Origin: Escherichia coli
GTDB taxonomy: Bacteria > Pseudomonadota > Gammaproteobacteria > Enterobacterales > Enterobacteriaceae
Strand: one strand, 5' to 3'
Assembly: GCF_003334765.1 (NCBI RefSeq)
Contig: NZ_QOWT01000002.1
DNA: 64,000 bases
Shown: positions 63,629 through 64,000 of the stretch, piece after piece
Position numbering within the stretch: the first letter of the stretch is position 1
How the letters are laid out: every line of letters starts with the position of its first letter
The notes under the pieces: generated by a model
What the model saw: only the letters and a program-made list of their open reading frames with translations
What the model was told of the DNA's origin: nothing
Databases searched by the model: none
Program-made: the position numbers and the translations under genes

Positions 63629-63879
63629 GGTATCTCCGGTTTTTCTTATGCAGGGTAGTGCTTGAGATAAATGCTCGGCGGGGCAGTAGAGTTAATGAAG
63701 TGTTACTGAACGCCGAAGCTCACTTTTTAAAATTCGTTCTTCCATGCCCGGTAACGCTCCAGAAAACGGCTTTAATTGTTGTTATGACGCTGTTACCTCG
63801 GCAAAAGTGATTATTCACTGTTACATACGGGTTACAACGTTAAAACGGTGCAATCATAGCTATCACATTGTTAAGATAC

Positions 63880-63895
63880 TGTGAAATCACTCACA
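63880..63895. promoter_or_regulatory. Consensus CRP-binding site (TGTGA-N6-TCACA) in the galS-mglB intergenic region
   Basis: tgtgaaatcactcaca seen directly, a perfect match to both CRP half-sites. Confidence 0.7.
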
Positions 63896-63907
63896 GATTG
63901 AAAGCGG

Positions 63908-64000
63908 TTACATCGCCTGATTTGTTGAGTTAGTGATCGCCGCCGCATTCTGGCGTGTTGCGACAGAATGGCGACGCACTAACGTCGGCATAAAACAGTG
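63908..64000 (-). CDS. galS: GalS (mgl/gal isorepressor) C-terminal end, partial
   Basis: Minus-strand frame open from the window edge, ending ...[12 protein letters not shown]-stop at 63908-63910; assignment relies on the conserved galS-mglBAC gene order. Confidence 0.55.

Follow-up and report, generated by a model that had tools for sequence, protein, structure and literature searches.

Regulatory region of the mglBAC operon of Escherichia coli: a compact promoter with CRP, GalS/GalR and ArcA sites and a partly conserved leader with a predicted Spot 42 target

The DNA between galS and mglB raises the question of which signals control the mglBAC operon, which encodes a high-affinity galactose/glucose ABC transporter, and how these signals are arranged. 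Work on the mglBAC promoter goes back decades, and in glucose-limited chemostats its operator is a repeated target of selection. In the 64-kb stretch of E. coli DNA analysed here (the window), a first-pass annotation made from the raw sequence had recognised real regulatory sites between positions 63629 and 63930; the same interval was found to hold two known elements that it had missed, an ArcA box and a Spot 42 pairing site. The mgl promoter, its operator and its control by CRP, ArcA and Spot 42 are all described in the literature, and this part of the picture is thus already known. Sequences, spacing, rarity and conservation were computed in this study, while occupancy, the direction of regulation and the site positions were taken from published work.

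Over its last 501 bases the window matches E. coli K-12 MG1655 with 100% identity, and this part was found in all of the 5,426 complete E. coli genomes searched. According to the RefSeq annotation, mglB occupies positions 62630-63628 (minus strand) and is followed by mglA and mglC, with galS located directly upstream of mglB on the same strand. The region 63629-63930 is the native promoter and control region of mglBAC in E. coli. We put at about 0.95 the probability that it combines (i) class II activation by CRP, (ii) repression by GalS/GalR, (iii) occlusion by ArcA and (iv) a Spot 42 target in the leader.

The operator and the CRP site at the end of galS

A cAMP-CRP core of the form TGTGA-N6-TCACA (TGTGAAATCACTCACA) is located at positions 63880-63895 (centre 63887.5), and the full 22-bp site would span 63877-63898. 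The first-pass annotation had described an exact match to the CRP consensus at this place, which holds for the position and for both pentamers but not for the outer parts of the 22-bp site: the flanks read TAC...GAT instead of the AAA...TTT of the full consensus. The second motif, the mgl operator (mglO), is a 16-mer (ATGTAACCGCTTTCAA; 63898-63913, minus strand) with the core TGTAACCGCTTTCA at 63899-63912, and corresponds to the GalR/GalS operator-like sequence previously noticed on the minus strand at about 63895-63915, next to the CRP site. The palindromic core consensus used in the search (TGNAANCGNTTNCA) was checked against the operator of the galS promoter (the galSp operator of locus L001 matches it). 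The two cores are separated by 3 bases and their centres lie 18 bp apart, with the operator upstream of the CRP centre.

The core TGTAACCGCTTTCA is the sole match to TGNAANCGNTTNCA in the 64-kb window, even when one mismatch is permitted. Short consensus matches of this kind do occur by chance (about 0.13 exact operator-core matches are expected per window), so that the operator and CRP motifs might be regarded as functionless coincidences. This is vanishingly unlikely, since the perfect CRP core is found twice in the window against an expectation of only 0.03 (shuffled sequences), and the copy considered here keeps a constant spacing of 18 bp, centre to centre, to the sole operator-core match. 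Moreover, the operator block and the CRP half-sites are invariant in an alignment of 25 Enterobacterales genera, while the leader between its own conserved blocks diverges, and published genetic and footprint evidence (see below) also contradicts it. The chance reading was therefore rejected as already refuted by the conservation and the published mutations.

The other perfect TGTGA-N6-TCACA sequence of the window (TGTGAATCTTTTCACA; 57204-57219) is intergenic, between yeiS and preT, and precedes the preT start codon (ATG at 57313) by 94-109 nt; judged from its sequence, it may be a CRP site for preTA.

The conservation of the arrangement was analysed in one genome per species, scanned for the MglB coding motif YKYDDNFM, a search that is unbiased with regard to the promoter. 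At least 120 mglB loci were found, of which 118 were usable. Among the matches listed, 74 of the 118 carry an exact operator core together with a CRP site upstream of mglB. The spacing between the two centres in these 74 listed loci is 18 bp in 62 cases (Enterobacterales, Aeromonas and Moritella), 19 bp in 11 (all Pasteurellaceae) and 20 bp in a single case (Avibacterium). Among the loci listed, the distance from the CRP centre to the start codon ranges from 55.5 to 351.5 nt; the promoter module is constant and the leader length lineage-specific. The combined module was not detected, among the loci listed, in Firmicutes, Chloroflexi and other distant loci, or in a few Gammaproteobacteria. Of the listed loci, 51, all of them from Enterobacterales, have a perfect CRP core at the 18-bp spacing, and this set served for the comparisons of single promoter elements given below.

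A variant form was observed in Aeromonas (L014, L041, L043, L045, L051, L066, L082, L098, L099 and L102) and Moritella (L039). These loci have a perfect operator core and a CRP-like site 18 bp away, whose operator-proximal half-site is degenerate (TGTTG, TGTCG or TGTAG), and they contain no adjacent galS-like gene. A galS-like gene directly upstream of mglB was seen in most of the listed Enterobacterales and Pasteurellaceae loci.

Published genetic data point to the same two sites. Chemostat evolution papers describe derepressing mutations at two places: genome position 2,238,647 corresponds to window position 63905, within the operator and 3 bp beyond galS, and position 2,238,630, in the CRP activator site, corresponds to 63888, in the CRP spacer. 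Under glucose limitation in chemostats, operator mutants changed at the equivalent of 63905 take over the population, and their mgl expression is raised. In the Reg-Seq studies, a CRP footprint at mglBp was recovered by mutation; in their mass spectrometry, CRP was not enriched on the mglBp bait, nor was it at other sites where CRP was expected. For GalR/GalS, Reg-Seq recovered no footprint at mglBp, and it grades the annotation of this site as weak-confidence. According to the literature, the main repressor of mgl is GalS rather than GalR, and CRP, GalS and mglB form a type-1 incoherent feed-forward loop. The earlier proposal that these sites fit the known activation of mgl by cAMP-CRP and its repression by GalS is thus supported by the published positions, the CRP footprint and the derepressing mutations.

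With respect to the end of galS, the first-pass annotation was wrong. It had placed the stop codon next to the operator, and its choice of 63930 as a boundary suggests that the triplet TTA at 63931-63933 was taken for the stop; that triplet was rejected as out of frame. The stop codon is the TAA at 63908-63910 (minus strand), given by the RefSeq coordinates of galS and by the end of the translation (...NQAM*). With the TAA at 63910-63908, the last two galS codons (ATG TAA) fall inside the operator (A-TG-TAA-CCGCTTTCA-A).

This overlap is not restricted to E. coli. Among the mglB loci listed, the galS stop codon coincides with the operator TAA in about 30, in genera that include Escherichia, Enterobacter, Citrobacter, Pantoea, Erwinia, Dickeya, Rodentibacter and others (loci L004, L007, L010, L013, L018, L023, L048 and L058 and about 20 more, from several families). 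In many other genera galS ends 4-47 nt before the operator, or farther away in two Pasteurellaceae.

An additional role can be imagined for such an operator, namely that GalS bound to it would also act as a roadblock at the end of its own gene, limiting read-through from galS into mglBAC. The stop codon lying within the operator and the recurrence of this overlap in several families agree with such a role, as does the result of a crude consensus scan of the minus strand, which gave no terminator-like hairpin in the interval from the galS stop to mglB, the only hairpin followed by a run of U being a weak 5-bp stem at +28 to +44. A roadblock is thus conceivable because no terminator is detectable between galS and the mgl promoter, but the scan behind this argument is a crude search. 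Moreover, the many genera in which galS stops short of the operator indicate that the exact overlap is not required, and the overlap may merely reflect the use of the invariant operator TAA as a backstop stop codon. On these grounds we consider the roadblock improbable; if it existed, it would add a role to that of GalS as a repressor of initiation, which stays the preferred function of the operator.

Promoter, transcription start and ArcA box

The RegulonDB/EcoCyc positions quoted in the Reg-Seq supplement place CRP at -41.5 and GalR/GalS at -59.5 of mglBp, which reproduces the 18-bp centre spacing observed here, and ArcA is located at -42 to -22 of the mglBp start (Park et al., 2013). The CRP centre (63887.5), the centre of the operator 16-mer (63905.5) and the ArcA 21-mer (63868-63888) all resolve to the same transcription start, a G at position 63846 (minus strand). 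This position is inferred from the published site positions, as quoted by two independent secondary sources. The mapped mgl promoters in RegulonDB/EcoCyc, with which a comparison had been proposed, therefore agree with the sites rather than refuting them.

The start is preceded by a -10 hexamer, TATGAT (63858-63853, minus strand; -12 to -7 by its geometry in the sequence), while at the -35 position the sequence CAGTAT (63881-63876) matches poorly. Among the 51 listed Enterobacterales loci, 37 have TATGAT at the same offset from CRP, and the hexamer starts with TA in every one of the 51; in the alignment the start G is nearly invariant across genera and the following TT is invariant. A perfect CRP core centred at -41.5, a recognisable -10 and a poor -35 together are the features of a class II CRP-dependent sigma-70 promoter. 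By the usual nomenclature the CRP site of mglBp is class II at -41.5, although the Reg-Seq supplement calls it "class I".

The sigma-70 promoter would thus fire at 63846 on the minus strand and, having a good -10 but no usable -35, should depend on cAMP-CRP bound at -41.5. In published in vitro experiments, the gal-regulon promoters other than those of galR and galETKM, the mgl promoter included, are silent without regulators. In the absence of galactose, GalS (and less effectively GalR) bound to the single operator at -59.5, directly upstream of CRP, would lower initiation. By analogy with GalR at the gal operator OE, GalS may interfere with the alpha C-terminal domain of RNA polymerase and with open-complex formation. 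A second operator that could support DNA looping was not found in the 64-kb window with one mismatch allowed, which argues for simple repression at mgl.

A different start was also considered. A consensus scan gave a single sigma-70-like match, TTGTAA-16-AATAAT (63837-63810, minus strand), which lies in the leader; if it were the promoter served by the CRP site, it would do so from a class I distance and the leader would be shorter. Besides being the only match of the scan, this sequence needs just one point mutation to become a strong new start: the Reg-Seq papers describe a mutation near +30 of mglBp that creates a consensus -10 and a new start, and it fits the 63810-63837 site to within about 2 nt. 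Several observations nevertheless make an active downstream promoter very unlikely. The number of promoter-like matches does not exceed that in shuffled sequence (1 versus 1.2). A start about 7 nt below AATAAT would place CRP near -84.5, out of phase with class I sites. The TTGTAA is not conserved in other genera in the alignment, while the TATGAT at class II distance is; 63846 is the start given by each of the published positions (-41.5, -59.5 and -42 to -22); and in the Reg-Seq papers the downstream start comes into being only when the sequence is mutated. The 63810-63837 sequence is probably a latent promoter-like sequence and not an active promoter in the wild type. The class II promoter with its start at 63846 is therefore retained in what follows.

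The ArcA box (TTGTTAAGATACTGTGAAATC; 63868-63888, plus strand) covers -42 to -22. In the supplements of Park et al. (2013) the box is given as ttgttaagatactgtgaa, at positions 2238610-2238630 of U00096.2, and is identical to the window sequence. A single offset of 2,174,742 fits both chemostat mutations and the ArcA box, by which the window coordinates are cross-validated. The box contains two TGTTA-like direct repeats whose centres are 11 bp apart: TGTTA at 63869-63873 and TGTGA at 63880-63884, the latter being the promoter-proximal half-site of CRP. On the mgl strand, the first repeat appears as TTAACA and lies downstream of the CRP site and upstream of the -10 (-28 to -23); its plus-strand form is TGTTAA, with TGTGAA following 11 bp further, which is the direct-repeat pattern of ArcA. 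The TTAACA is invariant in the 25-genus alignment and is found at the same offset in 50 of the 51 listed Enterobacterales loci. This conservation of the ArcA repeat across genera does not seem to be part of Park et al. (2013). The use of TTAACA as a -35 hexamer was also considered and rejected: it is located 10 bp from the -10, and no -10-like sequence lies 16-18 bp downstream of it.

Park et al. (2013) observed a strong ArcA peak at mglB (20.6 by ChIP-chip and 18.3 by ChIP-seq), scored the 18-mer ArcA site there at 15 bits, and found that loss of arcA derepresses mglBAC 29.2-fold, one of the strongest effects on any operon; they proposed that ArcA represses through promoter occlusion. Under anaerobic conditions, phosphorylated ArcA would thus sit on the repeats between -42 and -22, where it covers the -35 region as well as the CRP half-site nearer the promoter, and occlude the promoter. 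It is our own suggestion that phosphorylated ArcA and CRP probably compete at the shared half-site.

Within about 70 bp upstream of the start, the promoter therefore packs three sites, namely a GalS/GalR operator bearing the galS stop codon, a CRP site, and an ArcA box with one half-site in common with CRP, and the comparative data show this packing conserved base for base across Enterobacterales.

The leader and the predicted Spot 42 target

The start at 63846 and the mglB start codon (ATG at 63628-63626, minus strand) define a 5' untranslated leader of 218 nt (63629-63846, minus strand). The start codon lies 259.5 nt from the CRP centre, so the distance of about 250 nt given by the first-pass annotation was correct, and the long leader that it had offered as one explanation is present; an mglB leader of "about 250 bp" has been reported (Csiszovszki et al., 2011). 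A Shine-Dalgarno sequence, GGAG (63634-63637, minus strand), was assigned from sequence and conservation and is part of the conserved block AACCGGAGAUACCAUG.

Leaving aside the ribosome-binding site, the most conserved element of the leader is UACCCUGC (63657-63650), which is invariant or nearly so in 25 genera and in the predicted register pairs with nucleotides 1-8 of Spot 42 (its sequence was verified against E. coli genomes). The predicted pairing site as a whole covers positions 63650-63676 (minus strand; +171 to +197 of the leader), that is 22-48 nt before the mglB ATG. Taken by itself, the 8-nt seed is marginal, being matched by 5.4% of shuffled leaders, whereas the duplex of nucleotides 1-24 of Spot 42 with the leader has a dG of -24.8 kcal/mol, equalled by only 0.2% of the shuffles. 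Pairing of full-length Spot 42 with the leader (duplexfold) was no better than with shuffled sequences and thus uninformative; separate searches for each single-stranded region of Spot 42 were used in its place, and among these regions II and III gave no pairing signal with the leader.

In Salmonella, Spot 42 was shown with compensatory mutations to repress mglB by pairing with the 5' UTR, at a site that is located downstream of an Hfq crosslink peak and is conserved in E. coli (Holmqvist et al., 2016). Leader positions 63650-63676 are accordingly a predicted Spot 42 target in E. coli; the interaction was validated in Salmonella, and the pairing register given here is predicted from sequence. 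Spot 42, with Hfq, would act on the 218-nt leader just upstream of the ribosome-binding site. As CRP represses Spot 42, CRP would control mgl both transcriptionally and post-transcriptionally.

Other parts of the leader are conserved as well. Across 17-25 Enterobacterales genera, nearly invariant blocks were distinguished: CUGGAGCGUUACC (63762-63750), ACGGAAG, and GARCUUCGGCGUUCAGUAAC (63721-63702), the last of which reads GAGCUUCGGCGUUCAGUAAC in the window (63702-63721, minus strand). None of these blocks is accounted for by the known regulators of mgl (CRP, GalS, ArcA or the Spot 42 seed). A pairing of GUUAC with GUAAC between CUGGAGCGUUACC and GAGCUUCGGCGUUCAGUAAC is predicted, with almost no covariation, and the CUGG at +85 could pair with the CCGG at the Shine-Dalgarno sequence. 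The blocks may tentatively be viewed as an uncharacterised cis-regulatory RNA element (a site for an sRNA or a protein, a processing site, or a structure sequestering the ribosome-binding site), which we consider possible but on balance doubtful; part of them may simply correspond to the reported Hfq binding region.

Searches for structure in the leader gave little. Rfam returned no match to the leader, either in a scan of the whole window or in one of 63500-64000 at a permissive threshold, and the stability of the single-sequence fold of the leader was not unusual compared with shuffles (z = -0.79). RNAalifold, applied to 25, 21 and 17 aligned leaders, gave weak structures or none and no supported consensus; the best result reached -7.0 kcal/mol, of which covariation contributed a term of -0.6, and no more than 3 of its pairs showed a compensatory change. 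An upstream open reading frame (ATG at +102, 17 codons) was rejected, as its ATG is ACG or AAG in other genera.

Elsewhere in the window, the Rfam scan identified an OrzO-P antitoxin RNA (27643-27718, plus strand; 101 bits), which suggests a zor-orz-type type I toxin-antitoxin locus. Further hits above the gathering score, all on the minus strand (48154-48234, 8571-8667, 59883-59960 and 646-716), were to a Peptidase-S11 RNA motif, a TPP riboswitch and two naRNA4 elements; one naRNA4 (REP-derived) element is located just downstream of mglC.

Comparison with known systems

The closest counterpart of the mgl promoter is P1 of the gal operon (galETKM), which has the GalR/GalS operator OE immediately upstream of a class II CRP site and shares with mgl the repressors, the inducer (galactose) and the regulon. 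In the gal operon, OE is centred at -60.5 and CRP at -41.5, a spacing of 19 bp, compared with 18 bp at mgl (-59.5 and -41.5). The gal operon also has a second, internal operator, a repression loop and a CRP-inhibited P2 promoter, whereas for mgl the window contains no second operator-like sequence with up to one mismatch.

The same order of sites is found at galSp, which shares the strand of mglBp, lies about 1.1 kb farther upstream and carries an operator (TGTAACCGTTTCCA) followed by a CRP site (TGTGACTCGATTCACG). According to the Reg-Seq supplement, mglBp has the "same architecture as galSp". The two promoters differ in that galSp has a 19-bp centre spacing and a CRP core with one mismatch, while mgl has an 18-bp spacing and a perfect core. 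For ArcA, no galS entry was found in the tables of Park et al. (2013) that were searched.

At other ArcA-repressed promoters whose ArcA repeats overlap a CRP site, e.g., that of paaA, the repeats share a short stretch of DNA with the sites of an activator and of RNA polymerase, as they do at mgl, and this overlapping arrangement has been described as enabling extra regulatory control (Park et al., 2013). The mgl promoter is unlike the paaA type in that the promoter-proximal half-site of CRP (TGTGA) itself serves as the second ArcA repeat.

As regards the leader, galK, srlA, fucI, xylF and other Spot 42 targets are mRNAs for sugar catabolism or transport that CRP activates and that Spot 42, itself repressed by CRP, represses, which makes a feed-forward loop. 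Spot 42 acts on them through its 5' unstructured region, as predicted for mgl, whose site differs from theirs in lying off the ribosome-binding site and in a long leader.
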